Shown here piece after piece: positions 22,236 to 36,130 of a DNA stretch of 64,000 bases. Where the stretch lies: NCBI RefSeq assembly GCF_988242995.1, contig NZ_OZ547043.1, one strand, 5' to 3'. Under the pieces are notes generated by a model. That model did not search any database and was not told the origin of the DNA. It saw nothing but the letters and a program-made list of their open reading frames with translations. The translations under genes were made by a program, and so were the position numbers. Positions within the stretch are counted from its first letter, which is position 1, and each line of letters begins with the position of its first letter.

Positions 22236-22408
22236 TGTCAGGAGTCCTGAATAGTGATTAGAGGAGTCACATGTCGGCATCAGTTTCCCGACGATACGCA
22301 TCCTCCGCCATCAGTCCCGGATGGCTTATCACTGACACAACAGCACCTTAGCGAATCGCGGGGCGCGACTCAGTAGCCTTGCCGTGTATTCATCACGGCG
22401 AGGTATTC

Positions 22409-24181
22409 ATGACCATCACCACAGACACCACTCTTTTACACGACCCGCGTCGTCAGGCGGCGCTGCTGTACTGGCAGGGGTTTTCCGTGCCGCAGATTGC
22501 CGCCATGTTGCAGATGAAACGCCCGACGGTGCAGAGCTGGAAACAGCGCGACGGCTGGGACAGCGTTGCCCCCATCAGCCGTGTCGAAATGAGTCTGGAA
22601 GCGCGGCTGACCCAGCTCATCATCAAACCGCAGAAAACCGGCGGTGACTTCAAGGAAATTGACCTGCTCGGACGCCAGATTGAACGACTGGCACGGGTCA
22701 ACCGTTACAGTCAGACCGGCAACGAGGCAGACCTTAATCCGAACGTCGCTAACCGCAACAAAGGCGGGCGTCGCAAACCGAAAAAGAATTTTTTCAGTGA
22801 CGAGGCCATCGAAAAGCTGGACCAGATTTTCTTTGAGCAGTCTTTCGAATATCAGTTGCACTGGTATCGCGCCGGGCTTGAGCACCGCATCCGCGATATC
22901 CTGAAATCCCGCCAGATTGGCGCGACGTTTTATTTTTCCCGCGAGGCGCTGCTGCGCGCCCTGAAAACCGGTCATAACCAGATTTTTCTGTCGGCCAGTA
23001 AAACGCAGGCGTATGTGTTCCGCGAATACATCATCGCCTTTGCCCGGCTGGTTGACGTTGACCTGACCGGTGACCCGATTGTCCTGGGCAATAACGGCGC
23101 AAAACTGATTTTTCTCGGCACCAACTCCAACACCGCGCAGAGCCATAACGGCGACCTGTACGTCGACGAGATTTTCTGGATCCCGAATTTTCAGGTACTG
23201 CGTAAGGTGGCATCAGGTATGGCCTCACAGAGTCACCTGCGTTCGACCTATTTCTCCACCCCGTCCACGCTGGCGCACGACGCCTACCCGTTCTGGTCGG
23301 GTGAACTGTTTAACCGGGGACGCGCCAGCGCCGCCGAACGCGTGGAAATCGACGTCAGTCATAACGCCCTTGCCGGTGGACTTCTCTGTGCGGACGGCCA
23401 GTGGCGGCAGATTGTCACCATTGAGGACGCCCTGAAAGGCGGCTGCACGCTGTTCGACATTGAGCAGCTTAAACGCGAAAACAGCGCCGACGATTTTAAA
23501 AACCTGTTCATGTGTGAATTTGTTGACGACAAGGCGTCGGTGTTCCCGTTCGAGGAGCTGCAACGCTGCATGGTCGACACGCTGGAAGAATGGGAAGACT
23601 ATGCGCCGTTTGCCGCGAATCCGTTCGGCTCCCGCCCGGTATGGATTGGTTACGACCCGTCACACCGTGGCGACAGCGCCGGATGCGTGGTACTGGCACC
23701 GCCGGTGGTGGCCGGTGGCAAATTCAGAATACTTGAGCGTCACCAGTGGAAAGGCATGGACTTTGCCACTCAGGCTGAATCCATCCGCAAACTCACCGAA
23801 AAATACAACGTCGAATACATCGGTATTGATGCCACCGGCCTCGGTGTCGGCGTGTTCCAGCTCGTGCGCTCGTTCTATCCCGCCGCGCGCGACATCCGCT
23901 ACACGCCGGAAATGAAAACCGCAATGGTGCTCAAGGCAAAAGACGTTATCCGCCGTGGCTGTCTGGAATATGACGTCAGCGCCACCGACATCACCAGCTC
24001 GTTTATGGCTATCCGCAAGACCATGACCAGCAGCGGGCGCAGCGCCACCTATGAGGCCAGCCGCAGCGAGGAAGCCAGCCACGCCGACCTCGCCTGGGCG
24101 ACCATGCACGCCCTGTTAAATGAGCCACTCACCGCCGGTATCAGCACCCCGCTGACATCCACCATTCTGGAGTTTTACTGA
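22409..24181 (+). CDS. P: Terminase large subunit (ATPase) gpP
   Basis: 590 aa from ATG 22409 (MTITTDTTLLH...), divergent from O as in P2; ORF-track start 22379 is a TTG. Confidence 0.9.
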   Translation: MTITTDTTLLHDPRRQAALLYWQGFSVPQIAAMLQMKRPTVQSWKQRDGWDSVAPISRVEMSLEARLTQLIIKPQKTGGDFKEIDLLGRQIERLARVNRYSQTGNEADLNPNVANRNKGGRRKPKKNFFSDEAIEKLDQIFFEQSFEYQLHWYRAGLEHRIRDILKSRQIGATFYFSREALLRALKTGHNQIFLSASKTQAYVFREYIIAFARLVDVDLTGDPIVLGNNGAKLIFLGTNSNTAQSHNGDLYVDEIFWIPNFQVLRKVASGMASQSHLRSTYFSTPSTLAHDAYPFWSGELFNRGRASAAERVEIDVSHNALAGGLLCADGQWRQIVTIEDALKGGCTLFDIEQLKRENSADDFKNLFMCEFVDDKASVFPFEELQRCMVDTLEEWEDYAPFAANPFGSRPVWIGYDPSHRGDSAGCVVLAPPVVAGGKFRILERHQWKGMDFATQAESIRKLTEKYNVEYIGIDATGLGVGVFQLVRSFYPAARDIRYTPEMKTAMVLKAKDVIRRGCLEYDVSATDITSSFMAIRKTMTSSGRSATYEASRSEEASHADLAWATMHALLNEPLTAGISTPLTSTILEFY

Positions 24182-25215
24182 TGAGCAAGAAAAAAGGGAA
24201 AACACCGCAACCTGCGGCAAAAAAAATGACCGCCAGCGCCCCGAAAATGGAGGCATTCACCTTTGGTGAGCCGGTGCCGGTACTCGACCGCCGTGACATT
24301 CTGGATTACGTCGAGTGCATCAGTAACGGCAGATGGTATGAGCCACCGGTCAGCTTTACCGGTCTGGCAAAAAGTCTGCGTGCTGCCGTGCATCACAGCT
24401 CACCGATTTACGTTAAACGCAATATTCTGGCCTCGACATTTATCCCGCATCCGTGGCTTTCGCAACAGGATTTCAGCCGCTTTGTGCTGGATTTTCTGGT
24501 GTTCGGTAATGCGTTTCTGGAAAAGCGTTACAGCACCACCGGTAAGGTCATCAGACTGGAAACCTCACCGGCCAAATATACCCGTCGTGGCGTGGAGGAG
24601 GATGTTTACTGGTGGGTGCCGTCCTTCAACGAGCCGACAGCCTTCGCGCCCGGCTCCGTGTTTCACCTGCTGGAGCCTGATATTAATCAGGAGCTGTACG
24701 GCCTGCCGGAATATCTCAGCGCCCTTAACTCTGCCTGGCTGAATGAGTCGGCCACGCTGTTCCGCCGCAAGTATTACGAAAACGGCGCACATGCCGGATA
24801 CATCATGTACGTCACCGATGCCGTGCAGGACCGCAACGATATCGAAATGCTTCGCGAAAACATGGTTAAGTCGAAAGGCCGCAATAACTTTAAAAATCTG
24901 TTTCTCTATGCCCCACAGGGGAAAGCCGACGGCATTAAAATTATCCCGCTCAGTGAAGTGGCAACGAAGGACGATTTTTTTAATATCAAAAAAGCCAGTG
25001 CCGCAGACCTGCTGGACGCGCACCGCATCCCCTTTCAGTTGATGGGGGGCAAGCCGGAGAACGTCGGGTCGCTGGGTGATATTGAGAAAGTGGCAAAGGT
25101 CTTTGTCCGCAATGAGCTTATCCCGTTACAGGACAGGATCCGAGAGATAAACGGCTGGCTCGGTCAGGAGGTCATCCGCTTTAAAAACTACTCACTGGAC
25201 ACTGACAACGACTGA
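24181..25215 (+). CDS. Q: Portal protein gpQ
   Basis: 344 aa, ATGA overlap with P stop; P2 Q length and position. Confidence 0.9.
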   Translation: MSKKKGKTPQPAAKKMTASAPKMEAFTFGEPVPVLDRRDILDYVECISNGRWYEPPVSFTGLAKSLRAAVHHSSPIYVKRNILASTFIPHPWLSQQDFSRFVLDFLVFGNAFLEKRYSTTGKVIRLETSPAKYTRRGVEEDVYWWVPSFNEPTAFAPGSVFHLLEPDINQELYGLPEYLSALNSAWLNESATLFRRKYYENGAHAGYIMYVTDAVQDRNDIEMLRENMVKSKGRNNFKNLFLYAPQGKADGIKIIPLSEVATKDDFFNIKKASAADLLDAHRIPFQLMGGKPENVGSLGDIEKVAKVFVRNELIPLQDRIREINGWLGQEVIRFKNYSLDTDND

Positions 25216-25384
25216 ACATCGCCGCCTGCGGGCGGCTTTTTTACATCCCGTCATCACGCCCTCACACGCTCACCACCGCACAAAACACCCCTTAGACACA
25301 CCAACGCCCCGACGCACAATCTAAACGCCATCACGACGCGCTCAGACGCTGAAAAAATAAAATCAGCACCACCGCCAGCGCGCA

Positions 25385-25403
25385 GTGCTTTCCCCGCCTC
25401 GCC
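25385..25403. other. cos site (19-nt cohesive-end sequence)
   Basis: gtgctttccccgcctcgcc is the reverse complement of the P2 cohesive end as I remember it (GGCGAGGCGGGGAAAGCAC); lies just downstream of Q where P2 cos sits. Confidence 0.6.
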
Positions 25404-25554
25404 CGCCCGCTTCATGGGTCGGTTTGAATGCAGTTGAATTACAACTACCAAACCAAGCAATCCCTACTATTACGCAGAAAATGCATACTGAAATACCTCG
25501 TGCAAATTGATGCAGCTAAGTATGCATAGGTTTTATGCCTCAACGTATACGTTA

Positions 25555-27387
25555 TCAAACAGAGCCCTGTTCAAAAACAGTATCAAAATATGGTAGGAGA
25601 GGATAAGCACACAGAAAGAAAATCAGGATGCATGCATATGTCGTTGTTTCATCGTAACAAGCATTAGTATATAAATTACCATGTGCTAATTTATGTCTTA
25701 AGGTTGCCCCACTCTTTCTGTTAAAAAGAACATCGATAGTCAAAACAAGATTTTTAGAAAAGATACTTTCCAAATCATCTCTGCATTTATCTAGAAGCTG
25801 AGAAATACTTGTTGACTCCTCTAATCCCTTATCCAAATATCTAGTAGCATCCTTTCCACTAAGCTCATAATAATAACGAACCATACCTTCCATTTGTGGT
25901 ATTAAAAGATAAGCTGCACTGATGTAATCTCCCTGCCATAATTTGTAAAAGCCCAAATTAAAAATCTCCCTAAACTCCGGCTTGACAATTGGACTAGTTG
26001 TAACCAATTTAACGAATGTTGACAACGTCAAGCCATGTTCTTGAGAAAGTACATAGCGAGCAGGTTCAAAGACACCGTTTACAAAAATCTTATGAGTAAT
26101 CTCGAAATTTCTTAGATATTGATCAATAACAACATCATCACTCATATCTTTTTTATTATCCAACGGCGGGATTGTATATATCTTACGCCCACTCTCATCA
26201 TTAATTTCTGTTCCAACAAAACTAGAGAATAAACTTTTTTCTGATAATCTTAAAACTTGTTCCCTCATGCTTTCAATATTTTCAATCGGTGTTTCACTCA
26301 TTAAAACTTTGAATATATCGGGCAAAGAACGCCCCGTCAGTTTTTTTTCACTTTCAGCAACCAAGTCACTAATATCAATAGAATGGCTTAAAGTGACATA
26401 TTCACTCCTTACTTCTTCTCTCAAATTAGCAAGTTGTTCCTTTAAATCTTCTATCTGTTGGCTATCACCACCGTACTGTCTTAATTCAGAGATAGCTGTT
26501 CTTAACCAAGAGATCTTACCCATATTATCAGGTCGTTCTGTTGCAACTTTAATAGTAATATTTGCAGATGCCAGTTTACATCTCTTGGCACGTTCATACT
26601 CACCATTTTTTTCATAAATAACTGCACTTGTCATATAAAGTGATTTTACAGCATCATAATATTTTTTATCTTTATGCTGCTCAGCCATCTTCTCAGCATT
26701 TTCCGCATACTGCAGATTATACCCATCAAAATCACGCACCATAAACCAAGTCAAATTATTGAAACCTTCAAAGATTAATCTTTCATTTTGAATACTATAA
26801 AGAGAATGAATGGCATTTTTAATCGCCATGTTTCCTTCTGATTTTCTAGGGTAGACCATTTTATTAATGTGCAAAGCCCTAGCAATATAATCACGAGCAA
26901 AAATAAAGCAATTTAAATCACTTTCATCCATGCTTTCGTTTTTTATTATTAGCTTTTCAATTGCTATATTTAGCATTTCAGCATAGGAATCAATTGCTTT
27001 AATTGCCACGTCTTTATTTTTCCGATTATTACACCAAACAACATCATATATTCTTGATAACAAAAATGGATTGGTTATTTTTTGAGAAACATATAAAAGA
27101 CAGTCATTCACCTGCTCATCAAAATCTTCAGGCAATATTGATCTTTTATTACCCCAAATCATTTGGGGTTCAAATGCTGGAGTGTTGTTAACAACTTGCA
27201 AATTGAAACTATATAGCATACCAAAAAGAGATGCTAATTTTTTCTCTTTGGGGTTTTCTGATGACTCAGCAATCCCATCCAGATATTTTTTTATTTTATG
27301 TGCATGAAATGTAACTGGTATATACATAAAAACACTATAATCTAGTGTTTCAAGCTCTTCCCTTGTAAGAACAAAGATATCATTCAT
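25555..27387 (-). CDS. Cargo protein, 611 aa, unknown family; C-terminal R-x4-H (HEPN-like) motif; candidate single-gene defence/abortive-infection effector
   Basis: Large ORF in the P2 tin/old position between cos and A; ~30-35% GC on sampled lines versus ~52% flanks; ATG 27387 with AAGGTG RBS (track start 27492 is a TTG); motif RHKLAH encoded at 25681-25698; no Walker A seen. Confidence 0.6.
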   Translation of the reverse strand: MNDIFVLTREELETLDYSVFMYIPVTFHAHKIKKYLDGIAESSENPKEKKLASLFGMLYSFNLQVVNNTPAFEPQMIWGNKRSILPEDFDEQVNDCLLYVSQKITNPFLLSRIYDVVWCNNRKNKDVAIKAIDSYAEMLNIAIEKLIIKNESMDESDLNCFIFARDYIARALHINKMVYPRKSEGNMAIKNAIHSLYSIQNERLIFEGFNNLTWFMVRDFDGYNLQYAENAEKMAEQHKDKKYYDAVKSLYMTSAVIYEKNGEYERAKRCKLASANITIKVATERPDNMGKISWLRTAISELRQYGGDSQQIEDLKEQLANLREEVRSEYVTLSHSIDISDLVAESEKKLTGRSLPDIFKVLMSETPIENIESMREQVLRLSEKSLFSSFVGTEINDESGRKIYTIPPLDNKKDMSDDVVIDQYLRNFEITHKIFVNGVFEPARYVLSQEHGLTLSTFVKLVTTSPIVKPEFREIFNLGFYKLWQGDYISAAYLLIPQMEGMVRYYYELSGKDATRYLDKGLEESTSISQLLDKCRDDLESIFSKNLVLTIDVLFNRKSGATLRHKLAHGNLYTNACYDETTTYACILIFFLCAYPLLPYFDTVFEQGSV

Positions 27388-27506
27388 CGTTTTCACCTTT
27401 TTCAGTATAAATTTGCACGCATTATTATTAGCAACATAATCATCAATAGTTAACACATGCAGATAGACAGCAATTTTACTATTATGCAACAAATTAAATC
27501 AGATGT

Positions 27507-29789
27507 TTATTGCTCTGAATAACAATAAAACCAACTCCACTCATCAGCGACCGGATACGTAAATTTTTTCCCGTTGTAATTTACGGTCGCTCCACGCGCC
27601 AGCGCCTCCATCTCCCATCGCTGCGGCCTGATACCGTTCTGAGCAAGGTCAACGCGGATACGGGTAATTTGCATTCGTTCCGACCGGGTCAGTCTGGCCG
27701 ATGGCGCTATTTCATGCGGTTTTAGCGGGCTTCCGTTTCTTTGCTGACGATTTAGCGTTCTCAGCCCGTGTTTTAATGCGCCCCTGAGCGCCTTCACGAC
27801 CTCCGGGTCATTCCATTCGATAACACCGTCATTAACCAGATTAAGCACTGCTGCGGCGTGCTCAGAAGGTGTGGGAGCCGGTAACGAAGTATCACCACCA
27901 GTGAGCTTTCCACAGTTATTGACAGGACTCCGAGGCGCGGCGATGCCGCTTTTTAAAGTCAAAGGCTCAACGACCGGAACTTTCGGCACAATGCGCCAGT
28001 CCGTCGTTCTGGTGATATGAATATGACGCGCGCCGAGATGCGGCGCGTAAATGCCGACCACTCTCTCAACTTCTTCCTCGTACTCGTTAACGTCATCCGA
28101 CGGGCTACGGGCAACCCTGACAGTCTGACAATCGCGCGGGACATTTGCCCCACCCTGCGCGCTGATATACAACGCAAAATCACCACTGTCTGCGGCGGCG
28201 CGTGCAGCCTCGACGCGTTCGTCAAACTCATCAGCAATGCTGACGCCGCGAGGCAATTTGCGTAGTTCACGGTAAGCCCCCATTGTCGGCAGGCCAACCG
28301 TTTTAAATTGCGGGATGCGCCACGTTGACGCCCATGCGGTAACAGCCGCGGCAGTGTCATTCAGCGGTCTGCCGGTATCATTATCGAGCTGACCATCCAG
28401 TGCATATCCGTCGATATTTTTTGAGATGTATTTCGCGATATACCCCGCAGCACCGCCCCGGTTAAGGTGTTTCGCCTGAAAACGGTTTCGCGCGGCTCCT
28501 CTTTCGTCGCCATCCTCTTTGAGCGCGTAGCGACGCATGATTTCAATAATCTGGTTACGCTGGCGTGGATTACAAAAAAGCATCATATGCCAGTGCGGCG
28601 TTCCGTCGTGGTGTGGCTCGACGACTCGCAAACCGTAGACCTGTAAATCATTATCCTTGAATGCCGTGCGCATCAGGCTCCAGATACGGCAGAGATAACG
28701 CTGCGCATCCTTTGGATTAAATGCCTCATCGTTCCAGCCGTGATTAAGCTGGACGGTTTTACTTTCGCCTTTTCCGACCTGACGTGTCGGGTGATACTTT
28801 GACGGCGCGGTCAGCGTGATAAACATCCCCACATCACCCTCTGCGGCGGCGTAACGCTCAATACCGGCAATGGTGTTCATCAGCTCCATCCGGCGAATTT
28901 CAGGATTAGAAATACTGCCCATCACCTTACTGATAAGGTCGATGCGCTCGCCGGTTTCCCTGTTTTCAAGGTCACACGATTTAAGAAATTCCAGATTTGC
29001 CTGGCGGCGTGCACGTACATCACGAATGGCATGTTTACTGGCATAAGGAGAACGGTCTTTATTCACCTCCCCGACAGCAATCAGTAACGCCTCATGCCAG
29101 CGCATACGCTGGCCTTTAAGCTGATGAGTCCACCACTCATCGTTAAACAGACGGGCAATGGCAGAATATGCCTGCCTCGTGGTCATCTGTCCTTTACGGT
29201 ATTTTTTCCAGTAGAGAGGGGAAATATTGAAAGCACGTGCAGCGCCAGCAACATGACCATAGAGGTGAGCCTGCGCCTCATCCGTAAACAGCGATTCTTT
29301 CTCGCCATGCGCATCCACCCAGGCATCGCAGAGTTCCTCATACATCATGAAAAGCTGCGATGAGATACGGGCAGCAAATTTTTTCAGCTCCTTGTCATTC
29401 ATTCCCGGCAGGCGCGCATACTGGTCGCGCTCTGCCAGAAACAGCAACGACGCATCGGTGTTCATTTCATGGCGCTGATTCACACGATCAATGCGCGGCC
29501 ATAAACGACGCTGAAAAGTGGATGTGAGGAAATAAAACCCGTGCACTGGGCTTTTATTGCGCCTGATGTAGTCATAGCGTGAAGTAAACAGCGAGCGCAA
29601 AAAGTAAGGCAGGCGGTTAATCGTGGATAAAACACCTTGCACCTGACGCATCTCATCACGTGTAAGAGGTCTTTCGCGCCCGACAGCCTCGCGTGGCGCG
29701 TTCCATGCATAAGCACCGGTAAACATCTTACCGGTGCCTGCGGCAAATGCTGACGGAGGGACAAAACGCCCGGAGGCTTTAACGGCCAT
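27507..29789 (-). CDS. A: Replication initiation protein gpA (rolling-circle nickase)
   Basis: 761 aa from ATG 29789 (MAVKASGRFVPP...), P2 A length; track start 29831 is a TTG. Confidence 0.9.
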   Translation of the reverse strand: MAVKASGRFVPPSAFAAGTGKMFTGAYAWNAPREAVGRERPLTRDEMRQVQGVLSTINRLPYFLRSLFTSRYDYIRRNKSPVHGFYFLTSTFQRRLWPRIDRVNQRHEMNTDASLLFLAERDQYARLPGMNDKELKKFAARISSQLFMMYEELCDAWVDAHGEKESLFTDEAQAHLYGHVAGAARAFNISPLYWKKYRKGQMTTRQAYSAIARLFNDEWWTHQLKGQRMRWHEALLIAVGEVNKDRSPYASKHAIRDVRARRQANLEFLKSCDLENRETGERIDLISKVMGSISNPEIRRMELMNTIAGIERYAAAEGDVGMFITLTAPSKYHPTRQVGKGESKTVQLNHGWNDEAFNPKDAQRYLCRIWSLMRTAFKDNDLQVYGLRVVEPHHDGTPHWHMMLFCNPRQRNQIIEIMRRYALKEDGDERGAARNRFQAKHLNRGGAAGYIAKYISKNIDGYALDGQLDNDTGRPLNDTAAAVTAWASTWRIPQFKTVGLPTMGAYRELRKLPRGVSIADEFDERVEAARAAADSGDFALYISAQGGANVPRDCQTVRVARSPSDDVNEYEEEVERVVGIYAPHLGARHIHITRTTDWRIVPKVPVVEPLTLKSGIAAPRSPVNNCGKLTGGDTSLPAPTPSEHAAAVLNLVNDGVIEWNDPEVVKALRGALKHGLRTLNRQQRNGSPLKPHEIAPSARLTRSERMQITRIRVDLAQNGIRPQRWEMEALARGATVNYNGKKFTYPVADEWSWFYCYSEQ

Positions 29790-30054
29790 ATGAGCCAAAA
29801 GCCTCTGAGCAACGCTTGCTGAGTTGCTCAACCTGCGCGTTTAAATCAGCAAAAGACTTTGCGCTTCCGGTCAGAATATCGTGATGCATCAGGCCGGAAA
29901 CGAGCTGGCTTAATTTCGGGTAATAACCAACCACCGCCAGCCATTCCTGACCGGCGTTTTTACCGCTTTCCGCTCTCTTTTTCTCGTGGAGAATAAACTG
30001 AAAGCTGTCACTGGTAACGACATAACGTTCGCCAATTTCGATACGAATACTCAT
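29779..30054 (-). CDS. Small early protein (P2 orf83-like position)
   Basis: 91-aa ORF between B and A, coupled to neighbours. Confidence 0.6.
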   Translation of the reverse strand: MSIRIEIGERYVVTSDSFQFILHEKKRAESGKNAGQEWLAVVGYYPKLSQLVSGLMHHDILTGSAKSFADLNAQVEQLSKRCSEAFGSYGR

Positions 30055-34369: not shown

Positions 34370-35269
34370 ATGGCAGAATTTCCCGCCAGCTTACTGATTC
34401 TTAATGGCAAAAGTACTGACAATTTACCATTGCGCGAAGCAATTATGCTGTTGCGTGAGGAAGGAATGACGATCCATGTGCGGGTCACCTGGGAGAAAGG
34501 CGATGCCGCACGATATGTAGAGGAGGCCCGGAAGTTGGGCGTCGCAACGGTGATTGCCGGTGGTGGCGATGGCACCATTAATGAAGTTTCTACGGCGTTG
34601 ATTCAGTGTGAGGGGGATGACATACCCGCGCTAGGAATTTTGCCATTAGGAACCGCCAATGATTTTGCCACCAGTGTAAGGATTCCTGAGGCACTGGATA
34701 AGGCGCTGAAACTGGCAATTGCCGGTGACGCCATTGCGATAGATATGGCGCAGGTCAACAAACAAACCTGTTTTATTAATATGGCGACAGGCGGATTTGG
34801 GACGCGTATTACCACAGAAACGCCGGAAAAATTAAAAGCCGCGCTGGGTGGCGTCTCTTACATCATTCATGGCTTAATGCGCATGGATACTCTGCAACCG
34901 GACCGTTGTGAGATCCGCGGTGAAAACTTTCACTGGCAAGGTGACGCCCTGGTCATTGGTATTGGTAACGGGCGTCAGGCCGGTGGCGGTCAGCAATTGT
35001 GCCCGAACGCGTTAATTAACGATGGCTTGCTGCAACTGCGCATTTTTACCGGCGATGAAATTCTTCCGGCTCTCGTATCAACATTAAAATCTGACGAAGA
35101 TAACCCGAATATTATCGAAGGCGCTTCGTCGTGGTTTGATATACAAGCCCCACACGAAATCACTTTTAATCTTGATGGCGAACCGTTGAGCGGACAAAAC
35201 TTTCATATTGAAATACTTCCGGCGGCGTTGCGTTGTCGATTACCACCAGATTGCCCATTGTTGCGTTAA
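34370..35269 (+). CDS. yegS: Lipid kinase YegS (DAGK catalytic domain)
   Basis: 299 aa; GGDGT motif of diacylglycerol-kinase-like fold. Confidence 0.85.
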
Positions 35270-35350
35270 TCACACTATTCTCTCTTGAACCAGGGAGAAT
35301 CCGTAATGCCGGATGCGGTGTAAAAACTTTATCCGGCATACAGAGCAATA

Positions 35351-36130
35351 CTACACCGTAATTAATTTCACCCGTGTCTTCTGCAATGCCAGTTTATCCA
35401 CCTCTGACACGGCATCATCGGTAATAATAATGTCAATTTTTTCGATTGGCAGTACCTGATTAAAACCGCGACGATTAAATTTCGATGAATCGAGAACGGC
35501 AATCACTTTATTTGCGGCTGTAACCATCGCCCCGCTAATCGAATAACCTTCATTAAAGGTCGTAATACCATTAACCGCATCAATACCATCAGCACCGACA
35601 AACATTAAATCGGCATTAATATCCTGCAATGAACGCTCGGCAATGGAACCATGCATCGAGCGTGTTTTATGGCGGACGGTCCCACCACAGACGACCAGAG
35701 TAATGTCTTTATTTTCGGAAAGGGCAAATGCTGCCGGGAGACTGTTGGTAATCACCGTGATATTTTTGGCGGTCATTAATCCTTCGGCGATAAGCATTGT
35801 CGTACTTCCGCTGTCGAGAATAACGGTCATCCCTTCGTGGATCATTTTGACTGCCGCCTGCGCTATTCTGTTTTTTGGCGCGCTGGCGAGCTGAAATCGC
35901 TCTTTAAACCCAACTTCCTGGGTCTCGGTTTCACTATTACCGGACATTATTTTCGCCGCACCGCCATGAAAGCGCGTAACCACGCCTTTTTGTTCGAGAA
36001 AGCGCAAATCGGCACGGATTGTCGCTTCCGAGGCAGCAAATACTCCCGCCAGATCCTGAACAAGCACGGTTCCCTGTTCATTCACTAATTGGATGATCTT
36101 ATTCCTTCGCTCGAATGAATTCATCGTCAT
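35351..36130 (-). CDS. gatR: DeoR-family galactitol operon repressor GatR (uninterrupted)
   Basis: 259 aa, N-terminal HTH, DeoR C-terminal sugar-binding region; downstream of gatD. Confidence 0.8.
   Translation of the reverse strand: MTMNSFERRNKIIQLVNEQGTVLVQDLAGVFAASEATIRADLRFLEQKGVVTRFHGGAAKIMSGNSETETQEVGFKERFQLASAPKNRIAQAAVKMIHEGMTVILDSGSTTMLIAEGLMTAKNITVITNSLPAAFALSENKDITLVVCGGTVRHKTRSMHGSIAERSLQDINADLMFVGADGIDAVNGITTFNEGYSISGAMVTAANKVIAVLDSSKFNRRGFNQVLPIEKIDIIITDDAVSEVDKLALQKTRVKLITV

Follow-up and report, generated by a model that had tools for sequence, protein, structure and literature searches.

Positioned TGCAT boxes beside a P2-type cos site as a candidate cosB-like array, with an incidental 9-bp inverted repeat

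In the window (the whole 64,000-nt stretch of contig NZ_OZ547043.1 that was analysed), the DNA between a P2-type cos site and the 3' end of a 611-aa cargo gene was found to carry a set of short TGCAT boxes whose distances from the cohesive end are retained across relatives with unrelated neighbouring genes. A perfect 9-bp inverted repeat in the same interval, which had been singled out in the first-pass annotation, is an incidental by-product of these boxes. The reading put forward here as a whole, namely a canonical cos site, an incidental repeat and a positioned, cosB-like box array belonging to the phage backbone, is held to be probable without being secure.

The window is oriented in reverse of the standard P2 map. 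Its annotation made use of ON470601 (phage vB_EcoM-569R9), a 99.4% identical phage that carries the same cargo gene. The features of the region are given below, with negative positions counted from -1, the base that adjoins cos on the right when the map is read as in P2.

Before P and first in window order, minus strand: capsid gene N and scaffold gene O.
22379-24181, plus strand: terminase gene P.
24181-25215, plus strand: portal gene Q, backbone beyond cos (ORF list, annotations of ON470601 and P2).
25221-25236: Q terminator tQ (terminator scan).
25373-25441: conserved cos core, about -38 to +12, with the near-invariant CTGCATTNAAACCGNCCCNTGAAGCGGGC (information content, BLAST, alignment).
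25385-25403, minus strand: 19-nt P2-type cohesive-end sequence, equivalent of cosN (exact P2 match).
25428-25432: TGCAT box at -29, inside the core (TGCA frequency in flanks).
25481-25489: repeat arm nearer cos (atgcatact).
25482-25485: extra TGCA box at -82, core of the inner arm, lineage-specific.
25501-25504: box 3, TGCA at -101, the inner nested tgca of the first-pass annotation; column invariant in an 11-sequence alignment.
25511-25514: box 2, TGCA at -111, one helical turn from box 3; G and C invariant in the alignment.
25519-25527: repeat arm nearer the cargo gene (agtatgcat).
25523-25526: box 1, TGCA at -123 (in relatives at -124 and/or -120), core of the outer arm; T, G and C invariant in the alignment.
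25555-27390, minus strand: cargo gene, 611 aa, 3' end toward cos (stop codon at 25555-25557).
27507-29831, minus strand: replication gene A (gpA), backbone on the far side of the cargo (ON470601 annotation).

The cohesive end at 25385-25403 is the canonical P2 cos cleavage site, a known feature. It reads GTGCTTTCCCCGCCTCGCC, the exact reverse complement over 19 nt of GGCGAGGCGGGGAAAGCAC, which is cosL 1-19 of P2 (NC_001895) without a mismatch, and the earlier assignment of a P2-type cohesive end, together with its proposed check against a P2 reference, was thereby borne out. Position 1 of many linear P2-like phage records aligns by BLAST at window 25403, and from this start base 25403 is predicted to be the virion DNA end cut by terminase. 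As in other sites of the P2 type, cos lies between portal gene Q, with its terminator tQ, and the gpA-proximal variable locus. The P2/P4 cos is described, in three papers (PMC5694545, PMC2231350, PMC9594776) that cite Ziermann and Calendar (1990), as having 19-nt 5' cohesive ends in a 55-bp conserved core; the 19-nt sequence, its position and the flanking core are the same in the window, with no difference in the core. This core has 93-98% identity with P2-like phages and near-invariant columns both in the 11-sequence alignment and in 166 non-redundant flanks, in which information content amounts to 1.2-1.7 bits per position over -30 to -1 and 1.5 bits over +1 to +10. Leftward of cos, conservation in the 166 flanks reaches only about +12, plus a T-run.

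That T-run (ttttattttt, at +22 to +32) follows a conserved TGCGCGCnGGCG on the Q side of cos (25353-25384), where the terminator scan also returned a minus-strand match running from 25381 to 25366, the fold of which is not that of a clean terminator. The element may halt transcription across cos or contribute to the function of cos itself. A 68-aa ORF on the minus strand (25254-25460) spans cos and is probably not a real gene; its equivalent in ON470601 is annotated as a hypothetical protein.

The cargo gene is AT-rich (GC 0.29-0.36), and its product matches Pfam DUF7380 (3.8e-38) and the PADLOC defence candidate PDC-S39 (2.9e-84), with a weak additional match to DUF4209 (7.7e-4) that falls under the curated cut-off. 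Homologues were found at 48-67% protein identity. The eight contigs recovered (identities of 53-66%), which include Klebsiella, Enterobacter and Kosakonia, are all P2-like prophages with the gene between gpA and cos, and Phage_GPA Pfam matches were found in related loci. The DUF7380/PDC-S39 gene of the window lies exactly in the old/tin defence hotspot of P2, which is bounded by gpA and cos (Rousset et al. 2022, PMC9122126); it differs in being a single gene that reads toward cos, as do the DUF7380 homologues in all eight contigs, whereas P2 old and tin read away from it. A perfect 12-bp palindrome, AACGTATACGTT, was also observed at 25542-25553, one base past the cargo stop codon.

For the comparison of cos-flanking DNA, flanks were drawn from viral contigs by means of the P2-type 19-mer and, separately, of the 186-type 19-mer, anchored at cos without gaps and cleared of near-duplicates, which gave non-redundant sets of 87 P2-type and 80 186-type flanks; the pooled analyses comprised 166-170 flanks. 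The window, P2, P4 and the eight prophages with cargo homologues made up the 11-sequence alignment. Because the 53 E. coli genomes and nine viral-contig loci that are at least 99% identical are uninformative for covariation, diverged homologues were used for that purpose. The frequencies of TGCA at the recurrent positions were as follows.

TGCA at -29: 94% of P2-type flanks (n = 87), 97% of 186-type flanks (n = 80).
TGCA at -35: 70% of P2-type, 80% of 186-type.
TGCA at -101: 70% of P2-type (85% with a further 15% at -100), 55% of 186-type.
TGCA at -111: 60% of P2-type (74% with a further 14% at -110), 68% of 186-type.
TGCA at -120: 24% of P2-type, 40% of 186-type.
TGCA at -124: 33% of P2-type, 41% of 186-type.
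Background per position: about 0.4% in P2-type, about 0.5% in 186-type.

CGCA replaces TGCA at -101 in many of the other 186-type flanks, and YGCA occupies this position in 77% of the pooled flanks. The boxes are not uniform: CGCA or other variants replace boxes 2 and 3 in about 10-20% of flanks, and box 1 is present in only about 60-65%, shifting between -120 and -124. TGCA occurs in the window at -123, -111, -101, -82 and -29 and in P2 at -123, -111 and -101. To the right of cos, information content peaks three times: over the core, from -1 to -38; at -50 to -65, over the G+C-rich element CCAGnnCTGGCGnGG; and from -95 to -125, over the boxes. Measured in 10-nt bins at fixed register, the boxes hold 0.6-0.8 bits per position and the sequence between and around them 0.1-0.2 bits. 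The feature that is conserved is, on this comparison of flanks, the positioned boxes and not the potential to form a hairpin or a cruciform. The nested tgca elements of the earlier description are indeed present (25511-25514 and 25501-25504); they turned out to be the conserved boxes 2 and 3.

A G+C-rich near-palindrome, gcCAGnnCTGGCGnGG, stands at -50 to -65 in many P2-, 186- and P4-type flanks and in the family consensus, and a regular-expression scan of -90 to -45 finds it in 55 of 166 flanks. The window (about 25453-25468) and P2 are without it, the window having GGGATTGCTTGGTTTGG there.

As for the repeat, its arms ATGCATACT (25481-25489) and AGTATGCAT (25519-25527) are reverse complements of each other without a mismatch and separated by a 29-nt spacer, so that its coordinates, its complementarity and its placement between cos and the 611-aa minus-strand gene all stand as first described. 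The repeat is real yet only marginally unusual, and it was chosen after looking. Perfect 9-bp inverted repeats with a spacer of 3-40 nt were present in 2.25% of Markov-1 simulated 151-nt regions, and 25 distinct ones were counted in the whole window (41 uncollapsed, against 11.5 expected by simulation under the same counting). Since ATGCAT is palindromic, two copies of it already constitute a 6-bp inverted repeat, and only the 3-bp ACT/AGT extension is additional. The repeat would thus arise in a right cos flank that holds several palindromic (A)TGCAT copies, where the lineage-specific -82 box happens to add three bases of complementarity to box 1. No occurrence of the complete 9-bp form was found apart from this cargo allele, which is carried by 53 E. 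coli genomes at least 99% identical and by phage ON470601; the form is missing from P2, P4, 186 and the prophages with 54-67% identical cargo homologues, which is the absence from related prophages that the first-pass annotation had named as counting against its own reading.

The inner arm owes its core to the -82 box, which is missing from every other row of the 11-sequence alignment. A recurrent or phased extra site at -82 was considered and rejected, as YGCAT occurs anywhere in -97 to -40 in 12 of 170 non-redundant flanks, twice at -82 and with no phase preference. The box could be a functional extra site instead of a product of chance.

In E. coli CH436 (NZ_CM166356), a 2.58-kb ISEc12 element of the IS21 family was found within the cos-proximal repeat arm (window 25486-25491), with the target-site duplication TACTGA, and boxes 1-3 are pushed 2.6 kb from cos. 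The strain provides a natural experiment on whether packaging depends on the boxes.

Whether this DNA belongs to the backbone or to the cargo cassette was settled differently by BLAST and by cos-anchored comparison. BLAST homology to other P2-like phages and prophages stops at about 25436-25458, beyond which only vB_EcoM-569R9 and 53 E. coli genomes match, with the same cargo and at least 99% identity. The assignment of the repeat to cassette DNA that the end of BLAST homology would imply was overturned by the cos-anchored flanks, in which the boxes are conserved where BLAST cannot align. Boxes 1, 2 and 3 are present in 65, 78 and 89% of 101 P2-like loci and in 100, 93 and 100% of 14 P4-like loci, and they are found irrespective of the orientation of the neighbouring ORF relative to cos. 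P2 has GTTGCATTCAAGGGTGCATGAGATTGCAT at the place in question, beside the unrelated and oppositely pointing old, and in P4, whose reported overlap with P2 is confined to the cos region (PMC9122126), CCATGCATCGATAAGGTGCATGGCTTTGCATGCG stands equally far from cos, downstream of psu. The prophages with cargo homologues carry a block like ACATGCATGCTTAGTTGCATGAGTTTGCATGTG where the window has CTATGCATACTTAGCTGCATCAATTTGCACGAGG, their 3' flanks being otherwise unalignable, and those of Klebsiella, Enterobacter and Kosakonia keep boxes 1-3 and not the -82 box. No ORF of at least 80 aa lies within 125 nt of cos in 110 of 126 loci, and the median gap between cos and the ORF in these 126 loci is 164 nt, that of the window being 151 nt. 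Judged by these flanks, the box array is backbone and part of the cos module, not of the cargo cassette. The comparison with relatives that had been proposed earlier therefore gives a divided answer, boxes 1-3 being backbone and the inner arm (-82) lineage-specific.

Two readings, both highly unlikely, would give the repeat a function of its own. The idea that the repeat or its boxes mark a recombination boundary, or travel with the cassette in the manner of attC-like or hotspot-flanking repeats, draws on the cassette-like appearance of the repeat in nucleotide searches and on a linkage with the cargo, in that arrays beside DUF7380 genes have a common spacer, CTTAG, between boxes 1 and 2. The distance of the boxes from cos is nonetheless unchanged next to unrelated genes in both orientations (old in P2, psu in P4 and many others), the second repeat arm is unique to the lineage of the window, and a matching repeat is neither expected nor seen on the gpA side. 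The same repeat was not found at the edges of different cassettes, and the break at 25491 in CH436, the only interrupted copy found, was discarded as an alternative cassette junction on account of the ISEc12 insertion and its target-site duplication. What survives of the boundary proposed in the first-pass annotation is the coincidence of the outer arm with box 1, beyond which the cos module has no further conserved element, so that the cassette ends within the next 27 nt (25528-25554), and the repeat itself is no boundary mark. The other such reading, in which the repeat forms an RNA hairpin that terminates the cargo transcript and insulates it before cos, is more improbable still. It gains from the location of the repeat, which on the cargo strand starts 28 nt past the stop codon and has UUUUCUG after it, with no other intrinsic terminator predicted between stop codon and cos, and from the isolated 62-nt segment, which folds with the 9-bp stem at -13.2 kcal/mol (shuffles -8.5 +/- 2.6, 5% of them as stable). 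Against this, the stem encloses a 29-nt loop, has G-C in three of nine pairs and is followed by an interrupted U-tract (tail UUUCUGCG), which is not the short G+C-rich stem, 3-8 nt loop and U-tract, stable in context, of a Rho-independent terminator. The hairpin was examined by folding segments of 62, 66, 121 and 221 nt, by computing pair probabilities, by scanning for terminators and by counting pairs in 11 relatives, and was rejected on these results. The 121-nt RNA gave z = -0.13, with the stem missing from both the minimum-energy and the centroid folds; each of the nine stem pairs had a probability of at most 0.006 in a 220-nt context; and the scan of the cargo strand over 25404-25555 returned no site. 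Nor is the stem kept in relatives with the same cargo: pairing held in 52.5% of cells across the 11 aligned relatives against 44% in shuffles, and the central pairs in 2-4 of the 11 aligned sequences. The terminators of relatives (locus L016; t95b of phage 186) are canonical hairpins outside the box array, the annotated t95b lying 38 nt beyond it. The latter shares with the repeat its location, from the last rightward gene to cos, and is a short G+C-rich hairpin with a T-run, whereas the repeat has neither. The transcriptional insulation of the cargo suggested at first is thus unsupported.

Two further readings concern the boxes themselves. That they are promoter or operator elements for genes of the variable locus, or the site of a host regulator, and not packaging elements, is distinctly unlikely. 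The annotated P2 old-tin mRNA starts 26-28 nt outside box 1 (P2 33424-33485), so that its promoter has a -35 region overlapping the boxes, and TTGCAT is itself similar to a -35 hexamer; the boxes may serve transcription in some lineages. The boxes are kept, however, where the neighbouring gene ends rather than starts (the window, all DUF7380 loci, P4 psu and 186), their register is tied to the cos cleavage site and not to any gene, and a promoter scan of the window returned nothing at the boxes. It is likewise unlikely, if a little less so, that the repeat is a coincidence and the boxes are functionless, conserved through common descent of the cos region. The repeat exceeds chance only marginally (local p about 0.02, picked after looking) and the -82 box occurs at background rate in the family; the explanation preferred here likewise treats the repeat as incidental. 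The information held by the boxes at fixed register stands out, though, from surroundings that are essentially randomised, and the register is kept in two cos clades and in satellites, which points to selection on the boxes themselves.

A bearing on selection for symmetry was also sought in covariation. Family-wide, the flanks of boxes 1 and 3 showed no covariation (p = 0.54), and those of boxes 1 and 2 a weak one (p = 0.0035, in a shuffle test that ignores phylogeny). In the DUF7380-linked arrays of four loci (L014, L018, L019 and L022; about -128 to -93), boxes 1 and 3 form 9-bp inverted repeats, and the outer bases of these repeats change in a compensatory fashion (TCAC/GTGA, ACAC/GTGT, TTAC/GTAA).

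The preferred explanation, a cosB-like array in the backbone, runs as follows. The boxes at -101, -111 and -123 belong to an array kept at fixed cos distances in P2-like and 186-like phages and in P4-like satellites, and, being roughly in helical phase with the -29 box, they may act as a recognition or bending array. The P2 terminase, as small subunit gpM with gpP and possibly a host bending protein, would assemble on them and so position cleavage about 100 bp away, and satellites would have to keep the array to be packaged by the helper terminase. The distances from the -29 box to boxes 3, 2 and 1 are 72, 82 and 92-95 bp, or about 7, 8 and 9 helical turns, which would place the boxes on one face of the DNA. 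A repeated, one-sided motif at fixed distance is what was observed (-101, -111, -120/-124), and it is shared with satellites otherwise without homology (P4 and 14 P4-like loci). Protein binding by the boxes and their part in packaging are suggested by these sequence comparisons and by analogy. A more specific version, in which the phased boxes at -101, -111 and about -122, together with those at -29 and -35, are the missing cosB of the P2 family, serving as assembly sites for gpM or a co-factor and copied by P4-like satellites, is offered tentatively, as a possibility to be taken seriously.

The analogy is with phage lambda, in which cosB comprises the gpNu1-binding sites R3, R2 and R1 with an IHF site, lies on one side of cosN at a distance of about 50-170 bp, and is needed for recognition by terminase and not for cleavage. 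The boxes of the window likewise repeat a short motif, about 100 bp from the nick site and only to one side of it, and they may be required, as in lambda, for terminase recognition rather than for cleavage. It was this one-sided placement, at about 100 bp and common to helpers and satellites that use the same terminase, that led to the likening to cosB and to the proposal of recognition or bending. The differences from lambda lie in the motif (palindromic TGCAT of 5-6 bp, against R sequences of 16 bp), in the small terminase subunit of P2, gpM, which comes from another family, and in the substrate, as P2 packages from monomeric circles (PMC2231350). Within the P2 family, phiCTX resembles the window in that its record (NC_003278) shows cos flanked on either side by annotated features, namely repeats R3-R6 and an IHF site (35250-35580); its repeats are CGCAGAAAG-like and unrelated to TGCAT, and its host is Pseudomonas. 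The 55-bp core described in PMC5694545, PMC2231350 and PMC9594776 does not extend as far as the boxes at -101 to -124. A P2/P4 cosmid with longer cos flanks was transduced at 0.035 against 1.7e-5 for a shorter one, a difference of about 2000-fold (PMC9594776), which is confounded because the plasmids differ in other ways.

The cos site and the incidental inverted repeat, as originally noted, are ordinary, and the cos site is textbook knowledge. The conserved box array is probably the substantive result and a modest, testable lead on an extended packaging signal of P2-, 186- and P4-like elements, since about 170 diverse flanks hold a second conserved island 100-125 bp from cos, beyond the 55-bp core described in the cited papers. 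The length of the cos fragment already seems to alter cosmid efficiency by orders of magnitude, and the array, if its proposed role is true, would supply a simple design rule for efficient P2/P4 cosmids in phage-based delivery. It would also provide an easy sequence marker by which to locate cos and predict packaging competence in P2-like prophages and P4-like satellites. If the island is a packaging signal, it would define the true inner edge of the P2 and P4 defence hotspots, and a cosB of the kind proposed would explain why these do not start at the 55-bp core but some 130 bp away from cos.
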